DNA of 32,000 nt from Desulfotalea psychrophila LSv54 (GTDB lineage: Bacteria > Desulfobacterota > Desulfobulbia > Desulfobulbales > Desulfocapsaceae): NCBI RefSeq assembly GCF_000025945.1, contig NC_006138.1:960001-992000 (forward strand), written 5' to 3'. The notes beneath the pieces were generated by a model. The model ran no database searches, was not told the origin of the DNA, and worked only from the letters and a program-made list of their open reading frames with translations. Shown piece by piece: positions 797 through 20,627 of the stretch (positions within the stretch are counted from its first letter, which is position 1; each line of letters starts with the position of its first letter). The position numbers and the translations under genes are program-made.

Positions 797-797
797 T

Positions 798-1383: not shown

Positions 1384-1441
1384 GCCGACTTAAACTAACA
1401 CAATCGAATTCTGCGTATTCACTGCGTAAGAGAACCTAACT

Positions 1442-3103: not shown

Positions 3104-3118
3104 AGATATTATATGAGA

Positions 3119-3145: not shown

Positions 3146-3160
3146 GAATGGAGATAGTTC

Positions 3161-4027: not shown

Positions 4028-4126
4028 TATTTTTTAGTAGGTTGTTTTTTTAATGGGCGCAGGCATATCGTTGATGTGTTCTGCGCTCAGTTGTTTGTAC
4101 TGGAGCACTCTAAGGGGAAATTTGAA

Positions 4127-6570: not shown

Positions 6571-6632
6571 TATCGTTCCTCTTGTTGATTAAGTGGGGAA
6601 GTGAGACTTTTTAGCTCTTGCTCGTTATCTTT

Positions 6633-6641
6633 CTCGTATTC
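6633..6641. repeat. IS1 target-site duplication, left copy (CTCGTATTC)
   Basis: Bases 6633-6641 (CTCGTATTC) are identical to 7410-7418 and directly abut the IS1 ends. 9 bp is the canonical IS1 duplication length. Confidence 0.92.
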
Positions 6642-6656
6642 GGTAATGACTCCAAC

Positions 6657-7160
6657 TTATTGATAGTGTTTTATGTTCAGATAATGCCCGATGACTTTGT
6701 CATGCAGCTCCACCGATTTTGAGAACGACAGCGACTTCCGTCCCAGCCGTGCCAGGTGCTGCCTCAGATTCAGGTTATGCCGCTCAATTCGCTGCGTATA
6801 TCGCTTGCTGATTACGTGCAGCTTTCCCTTCAGGCGGGATTCATACAGCGGCCAGCCATCCGTCATCCATATCACCACGTCAAAGGGTGACAGCAGGCTC
6901 ATAAGACGCCCCAGCGTCGCCATAGTGCGTTCACCGAATACGTGCGCAACAACCGTCTTCCGGAGACTGTCATACGCGTAAAACAGCCAGCGCTGGCGCG
7001 ATTTAGCCCCGACATAGCCCCACTGTTCGTCCATTTCCGCGCAGACGATGACGTCACTGCCCGGCTGTATGCGCGAGGTTACCGACTGCGGCCTGAGTTT
7101 TTTAAGTGACGTAAAATCGTGTTGAGGCCAACGCCCATAATGCGGGCTGTTGCCCGGCAT
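6657..7160 (-). CDS. insB: IS1 InsB' frame (expressed as InsAB' transposase after -1 frameshift)
   Basis: Track ORF, 167 aa: ...[42 protein letters not shown]...[10 protein letters not shown]...KHYQ. This is IS1 InsB with the DDE region, and it overlaps the insA 3' end in the -1 frame. Confidence 0.92.
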
Positions 7161-7354
7161 CCAACGCCATTCATGGCCATATCAATGATTTTCTGGTGCG
7201 TACCGGGTTGAGAAGCGGTGTAAGTGAACTGCAGTTGCCATGTTTTACGGCAGTGAGAGCAGAGATAGCGCTGATGTCCGGCGGTGCTTTTGCCGTTACG
7301 CACCACCCCGTCAGTAGCTGAACAGGAGGGACAGCTGATAGAAACAGAAGCCAC
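7079..7354 (-). CDS. insA: IS1 InsA transposition inhibitor / N-terminal part of InsAB'
   Basis: 91 aa: [91 protein letters not shown]. Zinc-finger plus HTH, matching IS1 InsA. Confidence 0.95.
7097..7103 (-). promoter_or_regulatory. IS1 A6C programmed -1 ribosomal frameshift site
   Basis: Plus strand GTTTTTT (7097-7103) reads AAAAAAC on the minus strand. It lies inside TTAAAAAACTC near the 3' end of insA, the established IS1 slippery motif. Confidence 0.85.
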
Positions 7355-7409
7355 TGGAGCACCTCAAAAACACCATCATACACTAAATCAGTAAGTTGGC
7401 AGCATCACC

Positions 7410-7418
7410 CTCGTATTC
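7410..7418. repeat. IS1 target-site duplication, right copy (CTCGTATTC)
   Basis: Identical to 6633-6641. Confidence 0.92.
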
Positions 7419-7500
7419 TTCTATAATAGAGAGAAATGAACCGTCCCACAAATGATATGCTCTCTCTTTTAAATTTTTATGAGTCCCTAAGGAAAATGCC

Positions 7501-8688
7501 ATGAACCTTCTTGATATCCTTCACTCAGAACTCAACCCTGTCCCGGTCAGTCAGGAAATTGTACCTTTAATAGAGGCCGGTGGCCGGGTTGTCTCTGAAG
7601 ATATTCGGGCCCGGATTCCCCTGCCTAGCTATGATCAGTCCAGTCGGGATGGTTTTGCTCTTGCCTCTCTTTCGGAAATGGGCGCTAGCTATCGACTCCT
7701 GGAGTTTGAGGCCTTTGCTGGCAATAGCGAGACGATTTCGCTTCGGGCCGGAGAGGCCTGTGCGGTGATGACCGGTGGCCTGATACCTCTTGGTGCCTCC
7801 CGAGTGGTGCCTAAGGAGCACTGTGCTCCCATGGCTGATACTCTTCAGCTTGATCTGGCGGCCATGGGCCTGCCTCCCTTTATCCAGAGGGTGGGGGAGG
7901 AGGTCGGCCTGCATGAGATAATTATTAAGAGGGGAGAACTTGTCCAGGCCGAAGATCTGGGGCTCTTGGCCAGCACCGGTAATGGGCAGATTCCTGTTTA
8001 CAGGCGACCAAGGGTGGGCTTTTTTGCCACCGGCACCGAATTGCTTGAGTTGGGGCAGGCACCTGTCGCTGGTATGAAGTTTGCCTCAAATCATTATATG
8101 CTTGCCGAACTCTGCAGTCTCTATGGCAGTGAGGGGCACAATATGGGAAGGGTGTCCGACAGGGGGGAGGTACTTACCAAGCTCTTCTCGGAGATAGTCG
8201 AGGGGGATCTTGATCTGGTCATAAGTACCGGCGGTATGGGGCCCGGTCGTTATGATCTGCTTGAGGAGAGCTTTGTTGCAGCCGGTGGCAGACTGGTGGT
8301 GAACTCTCTGCCCATGCTGCCCGGTAGATCAACCTTGGTCGGCTGGCTTGGTACGACCCTCTTCTATGGCCTCCCCGGTACCCCTCGGGCAATTCGTCCC
8401 CTCTTCACCGAGCTCATCTCCCGTTCCCTGCTTGCCATGCAGGGGCTGCTGGAAAATGCTCCCGTGCAGATAGAGGCTCGTCTTATTCGGGACTGTCGCC
8501 TGCGCAGGGCAGATGTTCCCAGTCTACAGGGAGGCAAGCTCTCCTATCAAGATGGGCGGGTCTGGGTTGAGAGGGTGGCTAGGACGGGTTCTCCCGATTG
8601 TTTTATGTTGGTGCCTGCTGGTTCTGATTGTCTTGAGGCTAATAGCTCTGTTCGGGTCCACCTGACAAGGTCACCATTTTCTCGTTAG
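7501..8688 (+). CDS. moeA: Molybdopterin molybdenumtransferase MoeA-like
   Basis: 395 aa. MoeA hallmarks: SSRDGFA (substrate-domain S.xDG[FY]A), VMTGGLIP, tandem domain organisation, ISTGGMGPGRYDLL (MoCF_biosynth TGG motif) and GLPGTP. Confidence 0.82.
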   Translation: MNLLDILHSELNPVPVSQEIVPLIEAGGRVVSEDIRARIPLPSYDQSSRDGFALASLSEMGASYRLLEFEAFAGNSETISLRAGEACAVMTGGLIPLGASRVVPKEHCAPMADTLQLDLAAMGLPPFIQRVGEEVGLHEIIIKRGELVQAEDLGLLASTGNGQIPVYRRPRVGFFATGTELLELGQAPVAGMKFASNHYMLAELCSLYGSEGHNMGRVSDRGEVLTKLFSEIVEGDLDLVISTGGMGPGRYDLLEESFVAAGGRLVVNSLPMLPGRSTLVGWLGTTLFYGLPGTPRAIRPLFTELISRSLLAMQGLLENAPVQIEARLIRDCRLRRADVPSLQGGKLSYQDGRVWVERVARTGSPDCFMLVPAGSDCLEANSSVRVHLTRSPFSR

Positions 8689-8942
8689 AAGATAATGGAG
8701 GTCGTAAAATCAAGTAAGCGTAGGTAGTTGCCCTTTTTTTGAGCATTGGGTAGAATCAGGTCATGCCCTTCAGTCATGGGCAGGAAGCTGGACTAAGGAT
8801 CTAAAAAAAGAGAATTTATCTTTTAGGGCGTGACATTCTATCCTGAATCTGGGCAGGATAGTAGGTGCAGAGGCCTTGCCGGTCATGGTCGATGAAGAGC
8901 TGATTTTTTTACAGATTTCAGGGGAGATGAGGATTTAACAAG

Positions 8943-9743
8943 ATGAAAAAGATATATATAAGTGCCGATATAGAGGGTATTTGCGGGGTGACTGATTGGG
9001 GCGAAACAGAACTTGGCTCAGCCACCCATGAGGAGTTTCGCAGGCAGATGACCTGTGAAGTGGCCGCCGCCTGTGAGGGTGCCATAGAGGCCGGGGTAGA
9101 GGAGATACTGGTGCAGGATGCCCACGACAGTGCCCGTAATATCCTGGCCGCAGATCTGCCGCCGAAGGTGCAGCTGATCCGGGGTTGGGCGGGGCATCCC
9201 TACTGCATGTTACAGAGTCTTGACTCTTCCTATGATGCCGTCCTCTTTATTGGTTATCACTGCGCAGGGGGTCGGGTTGGTAATCCTCTGGCCCATACCA
9301 TGACCAATGATAAGGCTTATTGGCTCAAGTTAAATGGAGAGTTTGTTTCTGAATTTTATCTTAATAGCCTCATTGCCTGCCGGGAGAATGTGCCGGTGCT
9401 CTTTCTCTCAGGCGATGCCGAGGTCTGTGCCGAGGCCAACCAACTCTCCTCCTCCATCGCGACCCTGGCCAGCAAAGAGGGTATGGGGGCCTCCACCATC
9501 AACCGTCATCCCTCTGAGATCTGTGCAGAGACCAGAAGGTTGGTTGCCGAGGTCCTGAAGAGGGGGGCGCCAGGGAGCCTGACCATGCCCCAGACCTTTA
9601 CGCTGGAGATTTGCTATAGCGGCCATGCCCTTGCCTATAGGAACTCCTTCTATCCCGGGGCGACTCTGGTGGATGGTAATCGGCTCCTCTTTGCCACCCA
9701 GGACTATTTTGAGGTGCTGCGTTTTATCCATTTTGTTCTGTAG
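8943..9743 (+). CDS. M55 family metallopeptidase (D-aminopeptidase DppA-like)
   Basis: 266 aa: MKKIYISADIEGICGV...VQDAHDS...FIGYH...FLSGD. It aligns by eye with the B. subtilis DppA metal-ligand motifs (DMEG, DSH, GYH). Confidence 0.82.
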   Translation: MKKIYISADIEGICGVTDWGETELGSATHEEFRRQMTCEVAAACEGAIEAGVEEILVQDAHDSARNILAADLPPKVQLIRGWAGHPYCMLQSLDSSYDAVLFIGYHCAGGRVGNPLAHTMTNDKAYWLKLNGEFVSEFYLNSLIACRENVPVLFLSGDAEVCAEANQLSSSIATLASKEGMGASTINRHPSEICAETRRLVAEVLKRGAPGSLTMPQTFTLEICYSGHALAYRNSFYPGATLVDGNRLLFATQDYFEVLRFIHFVL

Positions 9744-9794
9744 TCGTTTATTTTTATAAGTTGCCACCCATGTTTGAATATAAAAGGAGTTAGT

Positions 9795-10676
9795 ATGCGA
9801 CAGATCGTTTCTCTACTATTGTTAGTCTCTGGTATCATGGAAGTGTTTACCAGTGTGGTTCTCTATATTGTTCCGGCCGGGCGGGTTGCCTATTGGTCTG
9901 GTTATCGTTTTTTATGGCTCAGCAAGGAGCAGTGGGGGGATATGCATATTACCCTCGGTGTCCTCTTTCTATTGGCCGCGGTTCTTCATTGCTTTGTTAA
10001 TATCCGATCGATTGTCAACTACTTCCGTAATAAGGCCAGAAAGTTCAGCTTCTTCAACACTAAGTTCCTGATCGCCCTGATTCTCTCCCTCTATGTTGCC
10101 ATCGGCACCCTCTATCGTCTTACTCCCATGAATTACGTTTTGACCTGGGGGGAAGAGTTTAGTCAGACGGCTAACCAGAAGTACGGTGAACCACCCTATG
10201 GACATGCCGAAATGTCGTCGCTTACCATGTTCTGCAAGAGGATGAATCTGGACCTTGACAGGGCCAGTGAACTGCTGACAGCGAACGGCATTCAGTTTGC
10301 CGGTCCAGCCACTCCCATCAGTGAAATTGCCGTGGAAAATGGTAGAATCCCTCAGGACATATATCAGATTATTCGCTCAGCTAAGGCCCAACCGAAGGTT
10401 CGCCAGAATGGTCAGGGCCAGATCTCAGCTAAGGTGACCCCCATCTTCCCGGACCTGCCCCCCGCAGGTTTTGGCAATATGACCATTGGCTCCATCTGTC
10501 AGCAGTATGAGGTCCTCCCGAGCCACCTCTTGGCCGAGCTACAGAATCGAGGTCTCCTTATCGATGAGATGGATACAGTAAAAGAGGTTGGGGTAAAGAA
10601 CAACACCAGCCCCATGACCGTCTTTGAACTGATCCACGAGGTGTTGGTCCCACCGGCCCCCGCTACTAAGATTTAG
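9795..10676 (+). CDS. DUF4405-like integral membrane protein
   Basis: The ATG at 9795 is preceded by AAGGAG at 6-nt spacing; the track start at 9774 is unlikely. The N-terminus has 3-4 hydrophobic helices (LLLLVSGIMEVFTSVVLYIVPAGRVAYWSGYRFLWLSKEQWGDMHITLGVLFLLAAVLH) resembling the DUF4405 family, followed by a soluble C-terminal half of unknown function. Confidence 0.6.
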   Translation: MRQIVSLLLLVSGIMEVFTSVVLYIVPAGRVAYWSGYRFLWLSKEQWGDMHITLGVLFLLAAVLHCFVNIRSIVNYFRNKARKFSFFNTKFLIALILSLYVAIGTLYRLTPMNYVLTWGEEFSQTANQKYGEPPYGHAEMSSLTMFCKRMNLDLDRASELLTANGIQFAGPATPISEIAVENGRIPQDIYQIIRSAKAQPKVRQNGQGQISAKVTPIFPDLPPAGFGNMTIGSICQQYEVLPSHLLAELQNRGLLIDEMDTVKEVGVKNNTSPMTVFELIHEVLVPPAPATKI

Positions 10677-11207
10677 TCTGTGTAGTAAAGGATATTAACC
10701 ACAGAGGGCACAGAGACATTTTAGGTGAACTGCTTAAAAACAAAACCTTAATTCAGCTAAAAAGCTCTGTGCCCTTTAATCAATGGTCAGCCGTAGAGAC
10801 GTCGATTTATCGCGTCTCCGATACACCCCAGCGTCAACCTGTTACATCTGCTGTAAAGTAAAAGATATTAACCACTGGCAACCGAGATAGAAGAAAGATG
10901 CTAGATACGAGATACGAGAAAAAATTTAACAACGAGAAAAGCTTAAAAATAAGGCTGTTACCGCAGTTCTTTCTGGTATCCGCCGCTTCGCTGCTAGCAT
11001 CTCATATCTAGTCTCTGCCTTTCTGCCCTTTCTTTTACCCTTTAAATTTTAAAAATGAGTGTTCTCCAGGCAGTGGTTAGTTGCCCTTGCAGTTGTTCTT
11101 TCTTACAGCTGTCAGCTCCCAACTCACAGCTTGCTGCTATTTCTGTTGCAAGCTAATAAGGAACTCCGTTTGAACCATTTTCGTCCAAGAGGTAGAGAAT
11201 TTCCACC
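10677..11207. repeat. Mosaic intergenic repeat spacer 2
   Basis: TTAACCACAGAGGGCACAGAG...TTTTAGGTGAACTGCTTAAAA...CTTAATTCAG (10695-10774) recurs at 25113 and 25314. TTAACCACTGGCAACCGAG plus the GATGCTAGATACGAGATACGAG module (10868-10965) recurs at 14108-14211. GAGTGTTCTCCAGGCAGTGGTTAGTTGCCCTTGCAGTTG...CAGCTGTCAGCTCCCAACT recurs in spacers 1 and 3. Confidence 0.85.
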
Positions 11208-12371
11208 TTATAGGCATATTCGATTTCGTCCCGACTCCTTGGCCTCCTGTAGTTTTTTCCCAGCCCTTTTTAAGGTAGTCTCGAAGAGCTCTTCTTCCGC
11301 TCTATATATGGCGATACCAGCGCTAATGGTAATGTGAAATTTTTCATTGCGTTCATCAAAAACTAAACAGTCTGTTTCTGTTCTTATTATTTCAGTAATT
11401 TGTATTATCTCTTTTTCATTGTTGAAAAAACCAATAAGAAGAAACTCTTCACCACCAAAACGAATACTAAAATCATTTGGCCGGGTATTTTCTATAATAA
11501 TATTGGCTAATCTCTTTAAGACACGATCGCCACAGCTACGCCCATAGTTAGCGTTAATTTTTTTAAAGTGGTCAATATCCAAGTCTATTACTGCCAAAAG
11601 CTTTTCGTTATCCTGGTGCAGTTTTGTTAAGATAGTTGGTAAAATCTCTTTGAGGAATCGTTTTGTATAAAGGTTTGTAAGAGTATCCTTTATTGCAAGT
11701 TCACCAATTTGTCGTAGAAAATAATTTATAACAAAGATTGCAATGACAACAAAAACAATAAAACAGGCACTAAATATTACCGAGGTTTTAAAAACGATCC
11801 AAAAAATATTTTCCTGCATATCATCAAGATAGAGGCCTGTCCCCAGAACCCAGTCCCATGGGGTGAAATAGGTCACATAAGAAATTTTAGGACTCTCCTC
11901 GGGTATATTGGGCTTAGGCCAGTAGTATGAGACCCAACCGCCACCATTTTTAGCTGTGCTAATAAACTCTTTAAAAAAATATTTTCCCTTGAAGTCGGTC
12001 CAGTTGATGAGGTTAAGACCAACTCTATTCGGTGTATATGGTTGCATCAAAAGCACTCCTTCTCCACTGTTTACCCAGAGATAACCATTTGCTCCATATG
12101 TGGCTCCATTTAAGGTATTTAATGCTCTTGCCTTTGCCTGCGAAGAGGTCAGATTTCCATCTGCACTCAGTTGATAAAAATGTTGAACAACTCCCAGACC
12201 AACCTCAGTAATATGTTTAGATTGGTCTTTTTTTTCTTTTTCTAAATTTGTTGAAAGAGAGTAATGAAAAAACAAAAGAAAGGCAGTTAGTCCAAGACCA
12301 ATAAGAATAATAAATGCCAGAAGTTTCTTCTGAATCGGAGACCTGATTGTTAGGGATGCTGAGTTATTCAT
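11208..12371 (-). CDS. Sensor diguanylate cyclase (TM-sCache_2-TM-GGDEF)
   Basis: 387 aa. An N-terminal TM segment is followed by a periplasmic Cache-like segment (YLWVNSGEGVLLMQPY...GGGWVSYYWPKP...PKISYVTYFTPWDWVLGTGLYLDD) and a second TM. The GGDEF domain has DTLTNLYTKR, DIDHFKKINANYG and an intact RFGGEEF active site. The gene is visibly AT-rich (17/60 GC in line 11401-11460). Confidence 0.9.
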   Translation of the reverse strand: MNNSASLTIRSPIQKKLLAFIILIGLGLTAFLLFFHYSLSTNLEKEKKDQSKHITEVGLGVVQHFYQLSADGNLTSSQAKARALNTLNGATYGANGYLWVNSGEGVLLMQPYTPNRVGLNLINWTDFKGKYFFKEFISTAKNGGGWVSYYWPKPNIPEESPKISYVTYFTPWDWVLGTGLYLDDMQENIFWIVFKTSVIFSACFIVFVVIAIFVINYFLRQIGELAIKDTLTNLYTKRFLKEILPTILTKLHQDNEKLLAVIDLDIDHFKKINANYGRSCGDRVLKRLANIIIENTRPNDFSIRFGGEEFLLIGFFNNEKEIIQITEIIRTETDCLVFDERNEKFHITISAGIAIYRAEEELFETTLKRAGKKLQEAKESGRNRICL

Positions 12372-12878
12372 GGCTATACTCTCGCTTAATCTTGAGGTGT
12401 GGAGACGATAGTAGCTCTTTTCTAGGTGTCCTTTATTGTAGGAGAAAAAACAGATGTTGGGAATATTTTTATAATTTTTTTTTAAGCTGTTAAGGAAAAC
12501 AGGCCTAGATTAGGATATATATGTTACTTATTAAGGGGATGGCAGGAATCTGCTGGTGATGCTAAAACGTGGAGAGGATCAGTCGTATAACATCCAGTCA
12601 TTCAGATTTGTCTGGCAAAGACAGTTTGCTTTCATCACAATGGGAATTTTTCTAAACAACAGATTGGCATCACGGCCTGGAAAATGGAGTGGTGCTGGCG
12701 CAACAAAAGACTTAGGATAAATAAGGCGAGATTGCCCCCTGTTCCCACAGTTGCAGTTGTGCCAGTTGATCTTATTTTGGGACATTATATTCGCCCCCTG
12801 AGTATCTGCTAAGCCATAAGCGTCAACGAGGCAATAAAGGTATGGGCAAAGGGCAAACGGGAAAAGAGGTCGTCTACC

Positions 12879-13172
12879 TGTATAAAGCCTGAAAACCCGA
12901 GGAGACGAGCAATATACAGATGTATAAAGCCTTAAACACCGAAGAAAGAGACAATATACAAATGTATAAAGCCTGAAACACCGAAGAAACAGACAATATA
13001 TAAATGTATAAAGCCTGAAACACCGAAGAAACAGACAATATACAAATGTATAAAGCCTGAAAACCTGAGTTGACGGACAATATACGGATCTACACAGGCC
13101 AAAACCTTGAGGAGATGGCCAATATACATCCATACGAAGGCTCAAAACTTGGGTAAATGGCTTATCTGCGAG
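12879..13172. repeat. 42-bp tandem repeat array (5 good + 2 degenerate units)
   Basis: Units start at 12879, 12921, 12963, 13005 and 13047 (TGTATAAAGCCTGAAACACCGAAGAAACAGACAATATACAAA and close variants). Units at 13089 and 13131 are degenerate. Unit junctions form TATACA-AA-TGTATA inverted motifs. Confidence 0.92.
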
Positions 13173-13686
13173 CGTAGACAGTCTTTTTTATAGGGCAAGA
13201 TCAACATCCCTGATTTGCACTTACTGACAGCTCGCCATTTCGCTCGCCACTCGTTCGCCGCTACGCTGCTGATGCTACTCGTTGTCACTCACTGCTACTT
13301 CACTGCTGTTTTTCCTGCTCTTTCTAGTATCTGTCCTTGTCCTTTAAATTAAAAAAAATCAGTGTTCTCCAGGCAGTGGTTAAGCGCAGTTGCCCTTGCT
13401 TTTGTCCTTTCTGATAGCTGTTGGCTGACAGCTCCCAACTCGCCATTCCGCTCGCCACTCGTTCGCCGCTACGCTGCTGACGCCACTCGTTGTCACTCAA
13501 TGCTACTTCACTGCTATAGCTTCTTCCTATCGCTTTCCCGTCCCTGTCCTTGCCTGTGCCCTTTAACGTTAAAGTGTCCTTCTCTGTGTTCTCCCACCCT
13601 CTGTGGTGAACTGTTTTTTGTAGTTTTTGTAGTTTCTGGCCTATAATAGATTCTGCTTCTTGATCTACCCCATACATCAATAAAAA
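13173..13686. repeat. Mosaic intergenic repeat spacer 3 (contains an ~85-bp direct repeat pair)
   Basis: GACAGCTCGCCATTTCGCTCGCCACTCGTTCGCCGCTACGCTGCTGATGCTACTCGTTGTCACTCACTGCTACTTCACTGCT (13226-13307) is repeated at 13427-13515 with a few substitutions and a CCCAACT insert. Also present are TCAGTGTTCTCCAGGCAGTGGTTAA, CTGATAGCTG..GCTGACAGCTCCCAACT and TCTCTGTGTTCTCCCACCCTCTGTGGTGAACTGTTTTTT (13581-13619; compare 5811-5850). Confidence 0.88.
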
Positions 13687-13701
13687 TTGGAGGAGAGCAC
13701 C

Positions 13702-14094
13702 ATGCTAACCAGAGAGGATGTCCGCAGCCTGTTTGAACATTTGAAGTCTGACCCGGATCAGTTCTTTGCCCATGTCGCAACTGATGTGCAGTGGACGGTG
13801 ATGGGAACCCACCCCCTGGCCGGAATCTATCAGAGCAAGGAGGACTTTCTCGACCACACCTTTAAACGCTTGGCCAAAATCCTCAAAGAGGGCGCTCTAT
13901 TGGAGATAGTGGATCTCTTTATCGACGGTTCCACGGCCATCGTCGAGATGCGCTCTATCTCCACCGCCAATAACGGCAAACCCTTTGATAACAGATATTG
14001 CTGGATCGTTACCTTCAGCGGCGATCTCATCACAGCCGTCAAGGCCTACCTCGATTCGGCCCTTGTCCAGCAACTCGTCAGCGAAAATGAATAG
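13702..14094 (+). CDS. NTF2-fold / SnoaL-like (ketosteroid-isomerase-like) small protein
   Basis: The ATG at 13702 has GGAGGAG 6 nt upstream; the track start at 13687 is a TTG. The 130-aa product (MLTREDVRSLFEHLKSDPDQFFAHVATDVQWTVMGTHPLAGIYQSKEDFLDHTF...NRYCWIVTFSGDLITAVKAYLDSALV) follows the pattern typical of SnoaL-like NTF2 family proteins. Confidence 0.72.
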   Translation: MLTREDVRSLFEHLKSDPDQFFAHVATDVQWTVMGTHPLAGIYQSKEDFLDHTFKRLAKILKEGALLEIVDLFIDGSTAIVEMRSISTANNGKPFDNRYCWIVTFSGDLITAVKAYLDSALVQQLVSENE

Positions 14095-14770
14095 GGGCAT
14101 TTAAAAATCAACCACTGGAACCGAGGAAGAAAAAAGATGCTAGATGCTAGATACGAGATATGAGAAAAAACTTAACAGCGAAAAAAGATTAAAAATAAGG
14201 CTGTTACCGCATTTCTTTCTAGTGTCTAGCACTTCGTATCCGCCCTTGCCCTTGCTCTTCCTGGCACCTCCTAACTAATAGCTTCTCCCCACTTGTTCTC
14301 ACCCTCCTCGGAAAGAGACTTTCTGCCCAAAAAATTTTCCCGGAAGCAATGTCCTGTCAATTCTTAGGTAAGACCTTGAAAAGGTGTACAGAGCTACTCC
14401 TCCTCTTGGCAAGGGGAGGCTGGGTGGGGTTTGTCTTTTTTGCTGCATTTTAGCCAAAAAAATTCTCAGTGTTCTTCAAACAGTGGCCAATCGCTTTGCT
14501 TTTTCTAGTATCCGCCATTCCGCTGTGCTCCACTGCTAGCATCTAGCATCTAGCATCTAGTATCTCGCATCTGCTTTTACATCTTCTCTTTTCCTGAATA
14601 AGTATTGTAGTATCTTCTGGGGCTGTGGTAAAATGCCTTGGATATTCGTACGCTTACCAGATTGTGGTATCTGCCTCTTGCTGTGAGCTGGCTGGAAGTA
14701 GGATGTAGGATGGGCAGCAGCGAAGCGAAGCGGCGAAGGGAAGCGAAGCGGAGCGTGCCCATCAATGTTG
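14095..14770. repeat. Mosaic intergenic repeat spacer 4 (inverted heptamer arrays)
   Basis: The array (GATGCTA)x2 GATACGA GATATGA at 14136-14163 is mirrored by its reverse complement (TAGCATC)x3 TAGTATC TCGCATC at 14537-14571. Between them lie the central module AAAAAACTTAACAGCGAAAAAAGATTAAAAATAAGGCTGTTACCGCA, CCGCCATTCCGCTG..CACTGCT, CAGTGTTCTTCAAACAGTGGCCAA and the hairpin CTCCTCCTCTTGGCAAGGGGAGG (14397-14419). GCGAAGC-type repeats occupy 14715-14757. Confidence 0.88.
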
Positions 14771-14955
14771 ATGGGTGAGGAATTGGCTCATGTGAAGATT
14801 TTCAGTTTTTGGATGATGCTGGAGTAATACAATAAGTGAGGCTTTTCGGAGTTATCCAGGCCTTTATAATAACTTGTTGTGTGTGATTACAAATATCATC
14901 ATATATAGATTTGCATTATTGATAATCAGATGATCCATTTTAAGGAAATGCCAAA

Positions 14956-17900
14956 ATGATAAAAAATAATAGTTTAACAATTTTGCACCTATCAGATCTA
15001 CAGTTCGGAAAGAATCATAGATTTTTCCAATCAAATATTTCAGAAGAAAACTTCAATTTCAGTACACTTCAAGCAAGATTACAAACTGATCTTAAAATAG
15101 TAAAAAGTAAATATGATCTTGAACCAGACCTTATAGTTATCACTGGTGACCTAGTTGAATACGGTCAACAGTCTGAATTTGATCAAGCCAAAGTTTTCTT
15201 CAATGAGTTAGCTTCATTTTTGAATGTTCATATATCAAATGTATTAATTGTTCCAGGCAACCACGATATTAATAGAAAGGCATGTGAAGCATATTTTGCA
15301 GAATGTGAGGCTGACGAAAAAAAGCCTACTTTGCCTTATAAACCCAAATGGAGACATTTTAAAAATTTTTATAATAGCTTTTACTCAGATATTTCCAGAA
15401 AGTTTGATTTAGAAACTCCATTTGGGTGCACTGAATATCCTGAGTTGAAAGTAGCAGTTGCAAACCTTAATTCAACGGTTCAAGAAAGCCATCAAGAGAA
15501 AGATCATTATGGTTTGATTGGAGAGAATCAAGCTCAAAAAATTGCAGAGCAACTAGCGAAAAGAAAAGATGAAGGTTGGTTTAATATTGCAGCTGTTCAC
15601 CATAATGTTGTTCGCGGTGCAATAGAAGATGATGACAATTTACGAGATTCAGAAATGTTACAGAGGGTTATTGGTGATCACATAGATCTAATATTACACG
15701 GGCATACACACCGTGGAAAAATGCATTGGTGGTCCCCGCAGCTTCCAGTAATTGGAACGGGTAGTGCTTCTGTTGAAAAAAGTGCAAGACCAGATGAAGT
15801 GCCAAATCAATATCAATTACTAAAATTTACAGGGCTTGGTTTTACACGATATTGTCGTGCTTTTGCTCCGGATGAAGCGAAATGGATTCCTGATTCTAGA
15901 GTCAACGATGATGGTGTTGAAGAACATGAAATAAATTTTAGAAATGTGCACGCTGCATTTCCAGAATCACTAGAACAAAAAACAAATACACAAAATTCAA
16001 ATAATATAGATACGCTACCAAAAGAATTAGATGGTAGTAGCGATCAAATACCCAAAATATTTAGCCCAACATTTAAATTTCCGTTCACCCACTATTGTGA
16101 TTTACCACCTGTCGTAGATGTTTGGGTTGGAAGAGATAAACAATTAACTTCAGTTTTATCAACAAAAAGTGGTGTTGTTGCAATTACAGGCATAGGGGGA
16201 CAAGGGAAATCTGCACTCGCTGCTAAGTGCCTTGAACAATGGAAGCTGAATCACCCAAAATCATTTTGGGATTGGCGTGATTGTCGTGAAGAGGGCGATA
16301 GATTCCACACACAATTGTTAGGGCAAATTGAGAGGATTACAGATGGCGCTGTTGGAGGTGAAGAGTTGGCCGGTGCTCCAACGATCGATTTGGTTAAATA
16401 TTTGTTCGAAATAATAGGTGATCGTGATTGTTTGTTTGTTTTTGACAATGTTGACCAATATGTCAATGTAAACGAAAATTCCTTTGTTTCTGGTGTTTCG
16501 ACTTTCGTGAATGAGTCGTTAAGAGGAAAGCATAATTGCTTGATTCTTATTACTTGTAGACCACGAATAACATACCCCAACATCCGATTTTTCGAAATCT
16601 ATCTAGACGGGTTATTGTTTGAAGATACAATCGACTTGTTTAATAAACGTGGGGTTGATATCAAAAAAACTGGAATGCTTAATACTCTGAATGAGGTTTA
16701 CACTTTAACTGAAGGTCATCCTCTATGGCTTAACTTACTAGCAATACAAATATCAAGAGATGAAAAAAGTAGTGAGAATATTTTAGAAGAGTTGAGGAAC
16801 GGTGAGGCAGATAATAGGGCAAGGTCTATGTTACGACCTATTTGGAAAGGATTAAATGTTAACCAACAACAAGTTTTGCGTTGTATGGCAGAAATCCCAA
16901 GGCCAATGGACTCTGTCCAAATTCATAATTGCATAAGTGGTAAAATAAAAACATTTAACAGATTTAAGAGAGCGTTCAAGACCATAAAAGCATTAAGTCT
17001 GGTTGTTAAATGCGAGTCCGATGACGGCAACAACAAATATGATTTGCATCCTTTAGTTCGTAGTTTTATCAAAACTGAGTACGCTACAACCAAAGAGAGA
17101 TTGCCTTACATTGATCCGATAGTTTGCTATTTAAGGCAGCTAATTATGGGTTCATCGGCAAAAATTAGCACTGAGACTTCTTTTGATAAGCTGAGAATGT
17201 GGTCCGAAAAAGCTGAACTAGAAATAGAATCAGGGCTTATGGCGGATGCTGTTGAGTCATTAGGTTATGTGGCAAATAGATTGTTAGCAATGGGTTATTC
17301 TGAGGAATTGTTCCGTGTAGGTAAACGAATAATTGATGATTTTATCATTAACCCTTCTCATTATAATGAGATAAAAGAATTTGATGAGTTATTTCAAGTC
17401 ATCATTGAAGCTCTAATTGAATTTGGTCACGAAGCTGATGCGCGTCGTTTCCTAAAAAACTACGAAGATTTTGTTGAGGAAGGGACCGCACTGTTTATAG
17501 GTTTTTGTAGTCTCATGACATGGGTTGAGTGGCATCTTTATAACTATGACGAAGCTATTTATTGGGGAGAACGTGGTAGGTACTTAAAGAAACAATCTTC
17601 AATTGACACTTCCTGCGACTGTAGCCATAACCTTGCATTAGCATTACGAGACTCAGGTCGCTATGCGGAAGCAATGGAATATTTTTTAATGGGTAATTCA
17701 CTTGAATCTTTATTTTATGCTGATGCTGAATCAGAAAGAGATGGTTCTTTCTGGGGGAATATTGGACGCTGCTTGATGCTTCAAGGTGATTACATAAATG
17801 CTATTCAATGTCTTAAAAAATCTGCAGAATCACTAGGTAATGACCAAGGTGCAAACGGGATAAAAAATCAAGGATATGCTGCAAAGTGGATCGCACAATG

Positions 17901-18186
17901 CCTAGAAGAATGTTCAATCCTTGATGATGCGTACATTTTTTATCGTAAAGCAAAGAGCATATGGGATCAAAGAGCACCTATACTTTCTCATGAAATTAAC
18001 GTTAAGTTGAAAGATTTGGAACAATCTAAAAGACTTAACGAAGTGCTTAAACTAGGGGAGAAAGATATAATCAGGCGGTGTTCTGTTTGGCTAAAAAGCG
18101 ATCCAGTCCCTAAATCAGGGAAGAGGGTGCACACAACCAACCATTCCACCGGACTCGTTGAAGCTCGCCGCAGAGCTTGTCGTTAG
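14956..18186 (+). CDS. Metallophosphoesterase-NB-ARC (STAND P-loop NTPase)-TPR fusion protein; candidate NLR/Avs-like defence protein
   Basis: 1076 aa; AAGGAA lies 9 nt upstream of the ATG.
- aa 7-300: calcineurin-like phosphoesterase motifs LHLSDLQFG, TGDLVEYG, VPGNHD, AVHHNV and LHGHTHRG.
- aa ~390-705: NB-ARC signatures, namely Walker A GIGGQGKSA (K418, nt 16207-16209), Walker B CLFVFDNVD (D497), LILITCR, a GLPLAL-like TEGHPLWL and a winged-helix YDLHPLVRSF (MHD-like).
- aa ~740-1010: TPR-like helical repeats (NLALALRDSGRYAEAMEYF; GNIGRCLMLQGDYINAIQCLKKS; YAAKWIAQCLEECSILDDAYIFYRKA).
I see no HTH or DNA-binding module. The gene is visibly AT-rich relative to its neighbours. Confidence 0.9.
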   Translation: MIKNNSLTILHLSDLQFGKNHRFFQSNISEENFNFSTLQARLQTDLKIVKSKYDLEPDLIVITGDLVEYGQQSEFDQAKVFFNELASFLNVHISNVLIVPGNHDINRKACEAYFAECEADEKKPTLPYKPKWRHFKNFYNSFYSDISRKFDLETPFGCTEYPELKVAVANLNSTVQESHQEKDHYGLIGENQAQKIAEQLAKRKDEGWFNIAAVHHNVVRGAIEDDDNLRDSEMLQRVIGDHIDLILHGHTHRGKMHWWSPQLPVIGTGSASVEKSARPDEVPNQYQLLKFTGLGFTRYCRAFAPDEAKWIPDSRVNDDGVEEHEINFRNVHAAFPESLEQKTNTQNSNNIDTLPKELDGSSDQIPKIFSPTFKFPFTHYCDLPPVVDVWVGRDKQLTSVLSTKSGVVAITGIGGQGKSALAAKCLEQWKLNHPKSFWDWRDCREEGDRFHTQLLGQIERITDGAVGGEELAGAPTIDLVKYLFEIIGDRDCLFVFDNVDQYVNVNENSFVSGVSTFVNESLRGKHNCLILITCRPRITYPNIRFFEIYLDGLLFEDTIDLFNKRGVDIKKTGMLNTLNEVYTLTEGHPLWLNLLAIQISRDEKSSENILEELRNGEADNRARSMLRPIWKGLNVNQQQVLRCMAEIPRPMDSVQIHNCISGKIKTFNRFKRAFKTIKALSLVVKCESDDGNNKYDLHPLVRSFIKTEYATTKERLPYIDPIVCYLRQLIMGSSAKISTETSFDKLRMWSEKAELEIESGLMADAVESLGYVANRLLAMGYSEELFRVGKRIIDDFIINPSHYNEIKEFDELFQVIIEALIEFGHEADARRFLKNYEDFVEEGTALFIGFCSLMTWVEWHLYNYDEAIYWGERGRYLKKQSSIDTSCDCSHNLALALRDSGRYAEAMEYFLMGNSLESLFYADAESERDGSFWGNIGRCLMLQGDYINAIQCLKKSAESLGNDQGANGIKNQGYAAKWIAQCLEECSILDDAYIFYRKAKSIWDQRAPILSHEINVKLKDLEQSKRLNEVLKLGEKDIIRRCSVWLKSDPVPKSGKRVHTTNHSTGLVEARRRACR

Positions 18187-18349
18187 CTCCCACACCTCTC
18201 CTCCTCTTCTCCGAGTGGACTGGGAGGGGGAATGTGAAAAATGGCTCACAGAACCAACGCCCCTAGTGTCAGTTTGATTTCTCCCCTAATCTTGCCCTAT
18301 ACTATGGGTTCAAACTCGTGCCACCCCCAAACCTCAACCAGAGACTATC

Positions 18350-18490
18350 ATGTATTGGCTTCTCACCAAATATCTGCTTACCGCGGCGATTGTTGTCCTG
18401 GTCTCGGAGGTGGCAAAGCGTAGCGACAGGTACTTCTCTTCCGGGTCTTGCAATCGCCTTTGTAGTTGCAGTGGCTTTTGTATTTTCTAG
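18350..18490 (+). pseudogene. 5' remnant of a small membrane-protein gene (DUF3147-like N-terminus) truncated by repeat sequence
   Basis: The ATG at 18350 gives MYWLLTKYLLTAAIVVLVSEVAKRSDR. This resembles the conserved N-terminus of DUF3147-type proteins (...ITK.I.SA.IIV.VSEV.KRS...), recalled from memory. From about 18431 the frame runs into repeat modules (GCAGTGGCTTTTGTATTTTCTAGCATCCGCCATTCCGC) and stops at 18490. Confidence 0.35.
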
Positions 18491-18830
18491 CATCCGCCAT
18501 TCCGCAGTGCTTCACTGCTGTTTTTCCTGCTCTTTCTAGTATCTAGTATCTCGTATCCGTCCTTGTCCTTTAAATTAAAAATGTTCTCCTCCGTGTTCTC
18601 TGTGCCCTCTGTGGTTAGCGGCTCTTGCTCTTATCTCTTTTAGCCTGTCTATCGGCCAAAAAAAATCCCCTCCTCTTGCGAGGAGAGGGTCGTTACCTCT
18701 TTTTCTGTCCTTGCAGTCGCCCTTGTAGTAGTAGTGGCTTTTGCATTTTCTCGCATCTAACATCCGCCATTCCACTGCTGCTTTTTTGCCCTTTCTGACA
18801 GCTCCTAACTGAGAGCTTTCAGCTGCTTTT
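18431..18830. repeat. Mosaic intergenic repeat spacer 5
   Basis: CATCCGCCATTCCGCAGTGCTTCACTGCTGTTTTTCCTGCTCTTTC, then (TAGTATC)x2 TCGTATC (18537-18557), TCCTTGTCCTTTAAATTAAAAA and GTTCTCCTCCGTGTTCTCTGTGCCCTCTGTGGTTAG (18581-18617). A second CATCCGCCATTCCACTGCTGC and CTGACAGCTCCTAACT follow at 18760-18812. All are shared with spacers 1, 3 and 6. Confidence 0.85.
18658..18689 (-). terminator. Rho-independent terminator-like hairpin downstream of xsc
   Basis: The minus strand reads CCCTCTCCTC-GCAA-GAGGAGGGG followed by A then TTTTTTTT (the plus-strand A-run at 18658-18665). It lies about 140 nt past the xsc stop. Related hairpin cores (CCTCTTG(G)CRAGG) occur at 14397-14419 and about 25268-25281, so it may be a module of the repeat family. 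Confidence 0.5.
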
Positions 18831-20627
18831 CTATTTCTTACAACAGCAGCATTGCGGACGCATATCCTCTTTCTTAATCCCGGCAACCATTACCGGAGCC
18901 TTCATGGCATCGCGACGGAAGGGTTCGCCCAGCTCCTGATTGACCAGTACCTCAATAAAGGTGGTCTTGCCCTCTTCCATTTGAACCCTTACGGCCTCTT
19001 TGAGCTGAGCTGTTAGATCGTCCGTGCAGGTAGCCTGAACGCCTATCAGGCCGCAGGCCTGGGCGATTTTTGCATAGGAGACATTGGGATCGAGCTCGGT
19101 GCCGACAAAGTTATCGGAATACCAGAGGGTGGTGTTTCGTTTTTCTGCGCCCCACTGGTAGTTACGAAAGATGATCATGGTGATTGGTGGCCAGTCCTTT
19201 CGACCGCAGGAGACCATCTCGTTCATGGAGATACCAAAGGCACCGTCGCCTGCCATGCCGATTACCGGAACATCCGGTTGGGCAATTTTAGCCCCGCAGA
19301 TTGCCGGAAAGCCGTATCCACAGGGACCGAACATACCGGGGGCCAGATATTTTCTGCCCTCTTCGAAGGTCGGATAGGCATTACCAATGGCACAGTTATT
19401 ACCGATATCAGAGGAGATGATGGCATTCTCTGGAATAACGGATTTCATCGCATTCCAGGCCTCACGGGGAGACATCTTATCTGGCTCACGATCACGGGCT
19501 CGTTTATTCCAACTGGTACCAGGATCATCCTCTTCGTGGACCAGGTTGGCCAGCTCTACGCTCCATTCTGCCTTGGTCTTGCCGATGTTTGCCTTGCGTA
19601 TTTCACGGTCTGTGTCGCCTGCTGTGGCTGTGAGTCGGTTAAGAATTCCCCGGGCAACCTTTTTAGCATCACCGATGATACCAACTTTTACCGCCTTGGT
19701 CAGACCGATACGATCTGGGTTTATATCAACTTGGATGATTGCCGCATTCTGTGGCCAGTAGTCAATCCCGTATCCCGGCAGGGTAGAAAAAGGGTTGAGT
19801 CGGGTACCAAGGGCCAGGACAACGTCGGCTTGGGCAATGAGTTCCATTCCTGCCTTTGAGCCGTTGTAACCAAGGGGGCCTGCGGCCAGTGGATGGCTGC
19901 CGGGGAAGGCGTCGTTATGCTGATAACCACAGCAGACTGGGGCGTCCAGACGTTCGGCCAGCTCTATGGTATCTTTTATGGCCCCGCCCAGGATAACACC
20001 GGCGCCGTTGAGGATGACGGGGAACTTTGCCTTAGAGAGAAGTTCTGCCGCCTTCTCCAGGGCCTTTTCTCCACCGGCGGGTCGTTCAAAATCAACGATG
20101 GCGGGGAGTTCAATTTCAATTACCTGGGTCCAGTAGTCACGGGGGATGTTGATCTGGGCCGGGGCAGAGGCCCGTTTGGCCTGCATGATTACCCGGTTGA
20201 GTACCTCGGCCATGCGCCGTGGGTCTCGGACCTCCTCTTGATAGGCGACCATATCTTTAAATACAGCCATCTGTTCAACTTCCTGAAAACCACCCTGGCC
20301 CATGGTTGCGTTTGCTGCCTGGGGGGTGACTAAGAGGAGTGGGGTGTGGTTCCAATAGGCTGTTTTGACGGGGGTGATAAAGTTGGTAATACCAGGACCG
20401 TTCTGGGCTACCATCATTGACATCTTGCCGGAGGCTCGGGTGTAACCATCGGCCATCATTCCGGCGTTACCCTCGTGGGCACAGTCCCAGAAGGTGATAC
20501 CTGCTTTGGGGAAGAGATCAGAGATAGGCATCATGGCAGAACCAATGATACCGAAAGCATGTTCAATGCCATGCATTTGAAGGACTGTGATAAAGGCCTC
20601 TTCCGTGGTCATTTTCATTTTAGTCAT
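18831..20627 (-). CDS. xsc: Sulfoacetaldehyde acetyltransferase (ThDP-dependent)
   Basis: 598 aa. MKMTTEEAFITVLQMHGIEHAFGIIGSAMMPISDLFPKAGITFWDCAHEGNAGMMADGYTRA...QINIPRDYWTQVIE...APVCCGYQHNDAFPGSHPLAAGPLGYNGSKAGMEL...TRLNPFSTLPGYGIDYWP is almost co-linear with the Xsc sequences I recall. The ThDP motif is GDGAFGISMNE. Confidence 0.88.
   Translation of the reverse strand: MTKMKMTTEEAFITVLQMHGIEHAFGIIGSAMMPISDLFPKAGITFWDCAHEGNAGMMADGYTRASGKMSMMVAQNGPGITNFITPVKTAYWNHTPLLLVTPQAANATMGQGGFQEVEQMAVFKDMVAYQEEVRDPRRMAEVLNRVIMQAKRASAPAQINIPRDYWTQVIEIELPAIVDFERPAGGEKALEKAAELLSKAKFPVILNGAGVILGGAIKDTIELAERLDAPVCCGYQHNDAFPGSHPLAAGPLGYNGSKAGMELIAQADVVLALGTRLNPFSTLPGYGIDYWPQNAAIIQVDINPDRIGLTKAVKVGIIGDAKKVARGILNRLTATAGDTDREIRKANIGKTKAEWSVELANLVHEEDDPGTSWNKRARDREPDKMSPREAWNAMKSVIPENAIISSDIGNNCAIGNAYPTFEEGRKYLAPGMFGPCGYGFPAICGAKIAQPDVPVIGMAGDGAFGISMNEMVSCGRKDWPPITMIIFRNYQWGAEKRNTTLWYSDNFVGTELDPNVSYAKIAQACGLIGVQATCTDDLTAQLKEAVRVQMEEGKTTFIEVLVNQELGEPFRRDAMKAPVMVAGIKKEDMRPQCCCCKK

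Follow-up and report, generated by a model that had tools for sequence, protein, structure and literature searches.

Intergenic repeat mosaics are known from E. coli, cyanobacteria and a few other groups. In the 32,000-nucleotide (nt) window of the Desulfotalea psychrophila LSv54 chromosome analysed here (positions 960,001 to 992,000 of NC_006138.1), six long intergenic spacers, designated S1 to S6 (Table 1), are assembled from the same short, partly palindromic repeat modules; S4 is the spacer at 14095-14770. What are these repeats, and where do they come from? By comparison with known families, the spacers are best described as a new form of intergenic mosaic repeat, resembling in kind the bacterial interspersed mosaic elements (BIMEs) of E. 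coli and unrelated to them in sequence. Our preferred explanation, to which we assign a probability of about 0.5, is that they are pile-ups of small palindromic elements similar to BIMEs and to repetitive extragenic palindromic (REP) sequences, lodged in one another's loops and later altered through slippage, duplications and deletions.

One module set in six spacers

An initial reading made without database searches (the sequence-only reading) had listed eight modules, numbered 1 to 8, in exactly these six spacers. This description is correct: direct and inverted repeat families join the named spacers and no others. In a short-word BLAST of the spacers against the window, significant non-self matches are confined to 5601-5908, 10696-11124, 13231-13619, 14135-14558, 18447-18757 and 25104-25737, and the same search over the whole window finds module cross-matches neither in coding DNA nor in the approximately eight other intergenic regions. 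Fuzzy-pattern scans recover all eight modules, with 2-9 copies each against a shuffle expectation of 0-0.4, except for module 6, the 10-mer TTGCCCTTGC: it is present, but five of its 11 one-mismatch matches fall outside the spacers, making it a weak marker. Tandem Repeats Finder (TRF) detects period-7 arrays in five of the six spacers (at 5601, 5637, 5851, 10903, 14135, 14536, 14694, 18535 and 25559), with units such as CAGCTGT, CTGATAG, AGATACG, CTAGCAT and GGATGTA.

Pairwise comparison of the spacers yields common blocks of 11-79 nt that are 85-100% identical, some of them 100% identical over 35 nt. Because these blocks mostly occur in non-collinear order, the label 'mosaic' is accurate. Some short runs of modules keep their order from spacer to spacer: an arm variant followed by TTGCCCTTGC and CAGCTGTCAGCTCCCAACT, and CGCCATTCCGC followed by CACTGCTG, heptamers, TCCTTGTCCTTTAAATT and an arm. 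The three blocks containing the A-rich core are 75-85% identical, copy against copy, in a full-block repeat search, and the copy in S2, taken as reference, is 90-92% identical to the others over 77-79 nt in pairwise comparison. The arm variant GTGTTCTCCAGGCAGTGGTT is 97% identical between S2 and S3 over 29 nt, and arrays related to (CTAGCAT) lie at 5631-5653, 10897-10919 and 18535-18557. In S4 the purine-rich arrays of the right part are followed by an 8-bp palindrome, CCCATCAA-TG-TTGATGGG; none of these occurs in the other spacers. Element boundaries in the window spacers are not definable from sequence, and only candidate units can be named: a MITE-like unit (after the miniature inverted-repeat transposable elements) at 10867-11082, with ends TTAACCACTGGC and GCAGTGGTTAG, and likewise the heptamer-flanked A-core blocks.

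The six spacers are non-coding. The sole annotated open reading frame (ORF) within a spacer, at 13324-13680 (-) in S3, encodes a 118-aa 'unknown protein' of LSv54 with no homologue besides its own annotation among 5.8 billion proteins; a concatenated six-frame translation of all spacers likewise found no match in this collection, in a search of low sensitivity for blocks shorter than ~60 nt. S3 adjoins a 42-nt tandem array and S5 a 27-codon ORF stub. For a gene apparently truncated by the repeats at 18431, as the sequence-only reading had it, no confirmation was obtained: the ORF at 18350-18490 (46 aa) matches no family significantly and has no Pfam support. Its 46 codons open with 27 hydrophobic, membrane-helix-like residues that run directly into repeat modules at 18431, a layout that a deletion or insertion cutting a gene at the S5 border could have left.

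The modules have a direction. In the module map, the two-sided spacers S1, S2, S4 and S6 (4/4) have purine-rich modules on the left and their pyrimidine-rich complements on the right; S3 and S5 contain right-hand, pyrimidine-rich modules only. With this uniform polarity, each two-sided spacer is one large imperfect palindrome of concentric shells. The shells of S1 are, from outside in, (CAGCTGT)3.4/(CAGCTGA-type)8.3, A6/T6 and (GATACGA)/(TCGTATC), placed around the A-rich core. Two mirror pairs proposed earlier are borne out: in S4 the arms 14128-14157 and 14536-14565 are 83% complementary, and in S1 the heptamers near 5637-5646 pair in the fold with those near 5746-5755. The wider claim that every spacer folds into a long hairpin holds in part, being true of S1 and S6. 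As single-stranded DNA, S1 forms one long imperfect hairpin of -62.7 kcal/mol (shuffles: -32.5 ± 4.0, z = -7.5), and S6 folds with z = -4.4 relative to shuffles. The first ~500 nt of S4 (14095-14600) give z = -1.4, which is not significant, its heptamer arms pairing nonetheless, and S3 and S5 hold modules in one orientation. The outermost heptamer arrays of S1, 5851-5908 and 5601-5624, are 93-96% complementary and unequal in copy number (8.3 vs 3.4), which points to replication slippage.

A hairpin arm shared across phyla

Alignment of the 11 window copies of module 5, TTAACCAC(A/T)G, gave the unit structure ACCACAGAGG, 8-9 nt, ACACAGAG, which we used as the scan pattern for the GTDB representative genomes. 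At least 120 stretches match, against a calculated chance expectation of ~35 at equal base frequencies, and 100 further matching stretches are found in IMG/VR viral contigs (loci L014-L133, among the genomic matches listed, and L142-L241, respectively). The unconstrained gap holds a third unit, CRCVRRG, in 111/135 genomic arms among the matches listed and in 94/104 viral ones, with ~0.4% expected by chance, and immediately ahead of the pattern stand T, T and A/C in 53-63% of the matches listed, though the pattern does not demand these three bases. The arm is 27 nt long, with three CACAGAG units, TT(A/C)ACCACAGAGG-nCACAGAG-nACACAGAG (foreign-arm consensus AAAATTTAACCACAGAGGACACAGAGGACACAGAGAAAA), and is near-identical across distant phyla: hosts among the matches listed include Acidobacteriota, Verrucomicrobiota, Planctomycetota, Nostoc, Microcoleus, Bacteroidota (including a complete Bacteroides finegoldii genome), Gammaproteobacteria, Chloroflexota, Gemmatimonadota and Thermodesulfobacteriota. 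An nhmmer profile built from 134 foreign arms finds seven copies in the window, all in spacers, with E = 1.2e-6 to 2.6e-3; shuffled windows give only E 1-10. One of the seven, at 25112-25145, is a repeat 89% complementary to 5807-5850. Judged by this profile, module 5 is not lineage-specific and is a member of a cross-phylum arm family.

Where do the foreign arms sit, and how are they arranged? Among the matches listed, 83% lie outside crude ORFs, in DNA with a coding share of ~80%; convergent-gene spacers are enriched (31% vs 19%) and divergent-gene spacers depleted (10% vs 18%). An inverted partner follows within 260 nt downstream in 57 of 135 arms listed (median gap 74 nt) and is found upstream in only 21, seven of them from one contig; in the viral contigs the arm-loop-arm order outnumbers the opposite polarity 33 to 2. 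The basic unit is therefore a purine-rich arm, a loop and the inverted arm, in that order, which is the polarity seen in the window, where S2 and S6 have forward arms to the left of reverse arms, inner ends facing. Other tandem arrays (period 6-12, inverted heptamer pairs among them) reach 2.5 times the density within 300 nt of the foreign arms that they have in the remainder of the same loci, a ratio inflated by a comparison region that includes coding DNA. Sister arms with units CACGAAG, CACAAAG, CGCAGAG and CGCCAAG occur beside the foreign arms. The Desulfotalea picture of conserved arms inside larger host-specific palindromes, among heptamer arrays, is thus the general one. Finally, the DNA outside the arms shows raised complementarity: at positions 4-12 it is 41.7% complementary within an element as compared with 29.6 ± 2.0% for swapped partners, and at the base beside ACC the two partners covary (A/T, C/G). 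Such complementary outer flanks fit insertion into pre-existing palindromes.

Most foreign arm loops are shorter than 150 nt, and some arm pairs enclose genes. In three loci a GxxExxY gene (TIGR04256, PD-(D/E)XK-like; E = 1e-24 to 1e-43) lies exactly between forward and reverse CACAGAG arms, and the arm extends into the 5' end of the ORF. In a Verrucomicrobiales metagenome-assembled genome (MAG; JABTUJ010000058.1, locus L051, positions 1-8000), seven back-to-back arm junctions (reverse arm, ~17 nt, forward arm) delimit segments of 0.4-2.3 kb with a PIN toxin and a small upstream ORF, a DUF433 and DUF5615 pair, and a DDE_3 transposase; this layout resembles a cassette array. Other arm pairs enclose a DUF3800 protein, a C-5 DNA methylase or a Cas2-like protein. 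These contents are suggestive of mobile accessory cassettes, with small numbers and cargo type lacking a control. A specific partner gene for the arms was rejected after comparison of 178 ORFs (80-260 aa) whose start or stop is no farther than 120 nt from an arm: GxxExxY alone recurs, in 3 of the 120 loci listed.

The arm family is apparently unnamed and undescribed. Rfam holds no family for the canonical hairpins of 14 foreign loci, annotated plasmid records show no feature beneath the arms, and full-text literature searches for the arm motif returned unrelated primers only and no paper printing it. The sole Rfam match in these 14 loci, to an RNase P RNA in L110, was considered as an insertion site and rejected, as it lies 4 kb from the arm and is unrelated.

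The closest MnmE proteins beyond the strain's own are 71-76% identical (best 76%, among 5.8 billion proteins), and the relatives compared are contig L001 and contigs L002 and L003, the latter pair from one Desulfotalea sp. MAG. They retain rpmH-rnpA-yidC-jag-mnmE and, farther along, DJ-1, moeA and DUF4405. Their median spacers are 57 and 97 nt as compared with 165 nt in the window, and their spacers above 300 nt total 0.65-1.2 kb against 6.0 kb; on these contigs there are no period-7 arrays, no arm matches and, save one 15-mer, no module matches. The gene content between mnmE and DJ-1 and the DNA after DUF4405 differ in all three genomes, which places S1 and S2 at variable junctions. At the depth of these relatives, the spacer family is, as far as the compared contigs indicate, lineage-specific and associated with rearrangement.

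How the mosaics may have arisen

On the preferred reading, each element would be a purine-rich arm of 7-10-nt units in tandem, joined through a loop to its complement. New elements would settle preferentially in existing hairpins or loops at gene ends, giving nested palindromes in which every purine-rich arm lies to the left and every pyrimidine-rich arm to the right. The scrambled mosaic would be the later outcome of slippage within unit arrays, tandem duplication inside spacers, deletions and recombination from one spacer to another. Nesting would explain the uniform polarity, the concentric shells and the complementary flanks of the foreign arms. Mobility of the element, loop-targeted insertion and an effect on transcripts are what we infer here, the first because one module is found across phyla and in viral contigs. 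Since the spacers stand at gene-order differences and around foreign AT-rich genes, they may be hot spots of recombination or insertion.

Several observations weigh against this reading. Simple nesting predicts neither that right halves are far richer in modules than left halves nor that CGCCATTCCGC lies on the + strand in 8/8 copies; both may reflect left-half deletion or a replication-related bias. Arm-to-arm pairing is not obviously selected, as inter-unit positions are 70.3% complementary between the arms of one element and 71.0 ± 1.4% between swapped partners; we therefore dropped selection for pairing as a candidate. No target-site duplication is detectable in 52 foreign arm pairs, where direct repeats of 2-8 nt at offsets 0-4 stay at the level of partner-swapped controls. 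The window contains no transposase, REP-associated tyrosine transposase (RAYT) or recombinase, and the one insertion sequence (IS) present, an IS1 of the E. coli type, has ends that are unrelated. With no cognate transposase in the window and no target-site duplication in the foreign arm family, the earlier suggestion of a MITE is unproven in the strict sense; BIME-like, its other label, is a fair analogy for mosaic, partly palindromic, non-coding intergenic repeats. Lastly, exact-pattern scans find no A-rich core in 185,579 GTDB representative genomes and no module 3 in JGI metagenomes, where the TTTTAGGTGAACTGC block has no or chance-only matches, and blastn of S4 against a plasmid collection finds nothing; exact-pattern scans are insensitive, and these negatives bear on other lineages and little on the rest of the LSv54 chromosome.

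The TTTTAGGTGAACTGCYTAAAA pattern has two metagenome matches, both attributable to chance and one within a coding gene, and six viral matches to the TCTAGWATCTCGTATCCG pattern were discounted, all lying in one phage gene. Module 3 with a gap has three matches in viral contigs, at the level of the pattern only. For D. psychrophila, RepRanger records 2,529 extragenic palindromes of a generic kind and nothing specific to the spacer family. On the evidence of these scans, the lineage-specific modules are not widespread beyond this lineage, and given their lack of matches elsewhere they could be local.

Could the spacers, then, be an entirely local product? On this account the modules would have arisen in place, in a hypervariable origin-proximal island, by slippage, by duplication of segments and by ectopic recombination or conversion among a few neighbouring spacers, with no mobile element involved, the ACCACAGAGG arms being one imported piece. 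All copies seen lie within 20 kb, the comparison covering a 32-kb window. Internal tandem duplications are present in S3 (13228-13307 and 13436-13515, 94% identical, 208 nt apart) and in S5 (18431-18527 and 18694-18790, 73% identical, 263 nt apart), and the perfect identity over 35 nt suggests recent conversion. The missing matches in representative genomes, metagenomes and plasmids point the same way, although they come in part from the insensitive exact-pattern scans, and the protein database holds no paralogous spurious ORFs. However, the six spacers are separated by housekeeping genes (moeA, the TPP enzyme, pabABC) and share non-collinear blocks in both orientations, which is hard to obtain by segmental duplication alone, and the family of module 5 spreads over phyla and viral contigs. 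We consider a purely local origin unlikely.

It is more doubtful that the repeats are functional cis-elements, that is, bidirectional terminators, mRNA-stabilising 3'-end hairpins, protein-binding arrays or structured small RNAs. Foreign arms favour gene 3' ends and have A/T-rich outer flanks, S1 and S6 form very stable hairpins, and conserved units 9-10 nt apart without arm-to-arm covariation resemble protein-binding iterons. The module 8 hairpin at 18667-18688, 143 nt past the stop codon of the TPP-enzyme gene and on the same strand, is an ordinary intrinsic terminator; the module 8 copies at 14402 and 25268 lack a T-run. Against this, terminator-like sites in 5500-19000 are at shuffle level (12 vs 12.0), the spacers lie upstream as well as downstream of genes, the relatives do without the repeats, and rapid shuffling is atypical of a conserved RNA or operator. 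The sequence-only reading had also entertained a structured RNA of no named type. No known family is present (0 Rfam matches in the window at gathering thresholds), and a known RNA family is rejected for the 14 foreign loci as well. For the structured RNA itself we find no support: the consensus fold of the three A-core copies is weak, with 0/28 pairs doubly changed, no compensatory pairs and a positive covariation term (+2.78), three copies giving this comparison little power.

A broader, joint reading in four parts strikes us as improbable taken as a whole. It would have the arms belong to a horizontally spreading system with a trans-acting protein and with empty and fuller forms. First, the ACCACAGAGG / CACAGAG x3 arms would mark an undescribed virus-carried element system spanning Bacteroidota, Cyanobacteria, Acidobacteriota, Planctomycetota, Verrucomicrobiota, Gemmatimonadota, Proteobacteria and Desulfobacterota. 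Second, a conserved putative trans-acting protein would recognise the arms, and empty hairpins would target existing hairpins. Third, fuller forms would bracket and move single accessory or defence genes (GxxExxY nucleases, toxin-antitoxin genes, methylases, Cas2). Fourth, the Desulfotalea spacers would be a local graveyard of the arm and of heptamer-armed sister elements, their position around the AT-rich GGDEF and NACHT genes reflecting cassette capture.

The weakest alternative, recombination sites of an integron-like cassette system (or of an integron-less attC cluster, CALIN) bounding GGDEF, SnoaL and NACHT single-gene cassettes exchanged by a site-specific recombinase, is very improbable: the spacers do flank every AT-rich or accessory gene in the window, and foreign arms enclose the cargo described above, but there is no integrase or recombinase in the window, the genes between spacers point both ways and are not co-oriented cassettes, the spacers measure 330-700 nt against 60-140 nt, an attC core RYYYAAC is predicted from flank base frequencies in only ~9% of arms, some gene will lie between any pair of arms less than 3 kb apart, with cargo type lacking a control, and integron attC sites are rejected because the core sites RYYYAAC/GTTRRRY do not fit, the window arms reading AGTTAAC, CATTAAC and TATTAAC.

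The locus and its place among known repeats

Table 1. Spacers, repeat features, module counts and associated genes. Positions refer to the window unless a locus is named; module counts are from the fuzzy-pattern scan.
Feature	Position	Strand	Details
Spacer S1	5582-5913		between converging mnmE (+) and DJ-1-like gene (-)
S1, first modules			in order: (CAGCTGT)3, A-run, (GATRCGA)3, A-rich core
S1, following modules			in order: CGCCATTTCGC..TTTACTGCTG, (CTAGAAT/CTCGTAT), CAGCTGTCAGCTCCCAACT, reverse arm, T-run, (CTGATAG)5(CTGACAG)3
Spacer S2	10677-11207		between converging DUF4405 (+) and GGDEF (-)
S2, first modules			in order: forward arm and TTTTAGGTGAACTGCTTAAAA block, forward arm variant, heptamers, A-rich core
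S2, following modules			in order: reverse heptamers, reverse arm variant, TTGCCCTTGC, CAGCTGTCAGCTCCCAACT
Spacer S3	13173-13686		upstream of SnoaL-like gene (+); pyrimidine-rich (reverse) modules only
Spacer S4	14095-14770		between SnoaL (+) and NACHT/TPR (+)
S4, forward arm variant	near 14110-14126
S4, (GATGCTA/GATACGA)	14135-14163
S4, A-rich core	14165-14211
S4, reverse heptamers	14218-14240
S4, TTGCCCTTGC	14246
S4, hairpin CCTCTTGGCAAGG	14402		in unique DNA
S4, reverse arm variant	14469-14488
S4, CGCCATTCCGC	14513
S4, heptamer array (CTAGCAT)5	14536-14572		5.3 copies; inverted partner of (AGATGCT/AGATACG) 14135-14163
S4, right part	14694-14780		purine-rich (GGATGTA)2.7 and (GCGAA/GCGGCGAAGCGA) arrays at 14694-14755, ~8 units in total
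Spacer S5	18431-18830		downstream of TPP-enzyme gene (-); reverse modules only
Spacer S6	25051-25750		between diverging pabA-like (-) and yqeY (+)
S6, left part			two forward arms, each followed by TTTTAGGTGAACTGCYTAAAA block
S6, right part			reverse arm and reverse modules
S6, outer CAGCAGTGAAG-type arms	~25066-25092 / 25700-25735		pair with each other
A-rich-core block, copy 1	5623-5724	+	heptamers and AAAAAACTTAACAGC..TTAAAAATAAGGYTRTTACCGCA
A-rich-core block, copy 2	10889-10990	+	reference
A-rich-core block, copy 3	14135-14236	+
ACCACAGAGG-type arm	5810-5843	-	nhmmer E = 1.6e-6
ACCACAGAGG-type arm	10692-10715	+	nhmmer E = 4.6e-6
ACCACAGAGG-type arm, TTCACC variant	13580-13612	-	nhmmer E = 1.4e-4
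ACCACAGAGG-type arm	18593-18618	-	nhmmer E = 1.2e-6
ACCACAGAGG-type arm	25112-25145	+	nhmmer E = 1.2e-6; pairs with 25495-25525 in fold
ACCACAGAGG-type arm, three CACAGAG units	25313-25345	+	nhmmer E = 0.0026; TRF period 9
ACCACAGAGG-type arm	25495-25525	-	nhmmer E = 2.5e-6
Arm variant GTGTTCTCCAGGCAGTGGTT	11059-11078	-	again at 13362-13381; more diverged at 14469-14488
Heptamer array (CTGATAG/CTGACAG)	5851-5908		8.3 copies; inverted partner of (CAGCTGT), 3.4 copies, 5601-5624
Module 8 hairpin	18688-18667	-	9-bp stem, 6 G-C pairs, T8, tail ATTTTTTTTG
Heptamer arrays			6 GATRCKA-type and 5 CAGCTGW-type sites
A-rich core			3 copies
CGCCATTCCGC			8 copies
CTTCACTGCTG			9 copies
TCCTTGTCCTTTAAATTAAAAA			2 copies
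CWGTGGTTAA			7 copies
CAGCTGTCAGCTCCCAACT			5 copies
CCTCTTGGCRAGG			3 copies
GGDEF gene, AT-rich	11208-12371	-	GC 33-39%
Metallophosphatase-NACHT-TPR gene, AT-rich	14956-18186	+	GC 33-39%
GxxExxY gene between arms	L044 3697-4139
GxxExxY gene between arms	L056 6909-7500
GxxExxY gene between arms	L133 5892-6333

The window is the origin-proximal region of the LSv54 chromosome and opens with yidC-jag-mnmE, a block that is the usual neighbour of the replication origin; beyond it, housekeeping and accessory genes are intermixed. Most window genes have a GC content of ~47-56%, with 33-39% in the GGDEF and metallophosphatase-NACHT-TPR genes, and the repeats flank both of these AT-rich genes, as the sequence-only reading had observed. 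The 1076-aa product of the latter has a calcineurin-like phosphoesterase at its N-terminus, a weak match to NACHT NTPases, and TPR repeats; the N-terminal domain is also a match to PDC-S60, a candidate defence family in PADLOC (E = 1.6e-14). The gene may be a STAND-type defence gene with mosaic spacers on either side.

Other features of the window stand apart from the repeats. MnmE (4076-5581) is annotated with a GTG start as a 501-aa protein whose N-terminus is ~36 residues longer than in all relatives (462-469 aa); alignments to the relatives start at residue 31-35, and the true start is probably near 4180. A complete 768-bp IS1 occupies 6643-7410, between the DJ-1-like gene and moeA, flanked by a 9-bp target duplication, the direct repeats CTCGTATTC at 6634-6642 and 7411-7419. 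Its InsB and the E. coli K-12 protein are 100% identical, and 6,166 E. coli records contain IS1A that matches its DNA at 99% identity or more. As the 2004 assembly of this Arctic sulfate reducer was clone-based, this near-identity makes it most likely that the IS1 hopped in from the E. coli cloning host and is an assembly artefact, not native.

Next to S3, at 12837-13172, a 42-nt unit (TGTATAAAGCCTGAAACACCGAAGAAACAGACAATATACAAA) framed by TGTATA and TATACA is repeated ~7 times in tandem. This array is found upstream of the AT-rich GGDEF gene, at a distance of 470-800 nt, and overlaps a 188-aa ORF without family match; just past it is the best promoter-like site of the region, 12812-12784 (-), matching at 10/12 positions. 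A clustered regularly interspaced short palindromic repeat (CRISPR) array was considered here and rejected, as the 42-nt repeats have no spacers between them. Farther along, a chorismate-binding ORF (23404-24366, -) and a class IV aminotransferase ORF (22818-23690, -) overlap by 287 nt in different frames. In the relative L001 the two domains form one fused 596-aa gene, and possible explanations of the split are a frameshift, a pseudogene and an error in the sequence.

How do the spacers compare with known repeats? In BIMEs, the REP unit is a 20-40-nt imperfect palindrome with a GT(A/G)G head, and units cluster with alternating polarity. Like the BIME/REP clusters of E. coli and other Proteobacteria, the spacers are non-coding and intergenic, combine a few short motifs in both orientations, and consist of clustered imperfect palindromes, often at gene 3' ends. 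Unlike BIMEs, with which they share no sequence similarity, they have arms made of tandem 7-10-nt unit arrays instead of a single GTAG-headed 20-40-nt palindrome, form clusters of 330-700 nt, and show a nested polarity, purine-rich left and pyrimidine-rich right, in place of an alternating one. No GTAG-headed palindrome recurs in the window, where arms begin TT(A/C)ACCAC or are heptamer arrays, and no RAYT/Y1 transposase family matches any of the 20 main window ORFs.

With MITEs such as the Neisseria Correia elements and cyanobacterial MITEs the repeats have in common that they are small, non-coding, multicopy, nestable and rearrangement-associated, with candidate terminal inverted repeats; they differ in that the arm family shows no target-site duplication and no IS in the window has related ends. 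ERIC, Correia and BOX elements have sizes and an architecture unlike those of the window repeats. Cyanobacterial short tandemly repeated repetitive (STRR) sequences are built of units such as CCCCAGT. The window does contain tandem head-to-tail intergenic heptamer arrays, yet neither this STRR unit nor TAACTGA is among them.

Intergenic assemblages of the TAACTGA heptamer have been described in Beggiatoaceae, cyanobacteria and Bacteroidetes and are absent from close relatives (MacGregor 2015, PMC4679880). As in these and in STRR assemblages, several kinds of tandem heptamer share one long spacer, the relatives' spacers are shorter and repeat-free, and a link with gene rearrangement is suggested. 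In contrast, the window heptamers are GATRCGA, CAGCTGW and CTAGCAT, their inverted pairs are interleaved with non-tandem modules of 20-100 nt, and the host is a sulfate reducer (Desulfobacterota). The deltaproteobacterium Geobacter metallireducens has multicopy intergenic families, absent from a close relative, with four-five tandem heptanucleotides (Aklujkar 2009, PMC2700814); these elements (GGGACCG, MTYCTGA) differ in sequence, and none of the window motifs is found in the supplements of that paper. BIMEs are the nearest analogy, and the heptamer assemblages and Geobacter elements the nearest phenomena on record, neither of the two matching in sequence. The spacers also resemble the cross-phylum arms themselves, with seven window matches, the same arm-loop-arm polarity, an intergenic position and short-period arrays alongside. 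Unlike the foreign arms, those of Desulfotalea usually have a degenerate middle unit (GAAGAAGAG, GGGGAGA), include several solo arms, are embedded in lineage-specific modules and enclose no GxxExxY or toxin-antitoxin cargo. Membership of REP/BIME, MITE or any other named family fails where tested.

Beyond the case of RAYT and REP, the question is how intergenic repeat mosaics originate and spread. This locus offers a compact, well-resolved example from a sulfate reducer, with nested polarity, synteny breaks and foreign genes nearby, and because the nested spacers stand at such breaks and beside such genes it is a good place to test repeat-driven gene gain and rearrangement. If the arm family is truly undescribed, it would be a candidate widespread element, either mobile or recognised by a protein, and phylogenetic profiling could find the partner protein.

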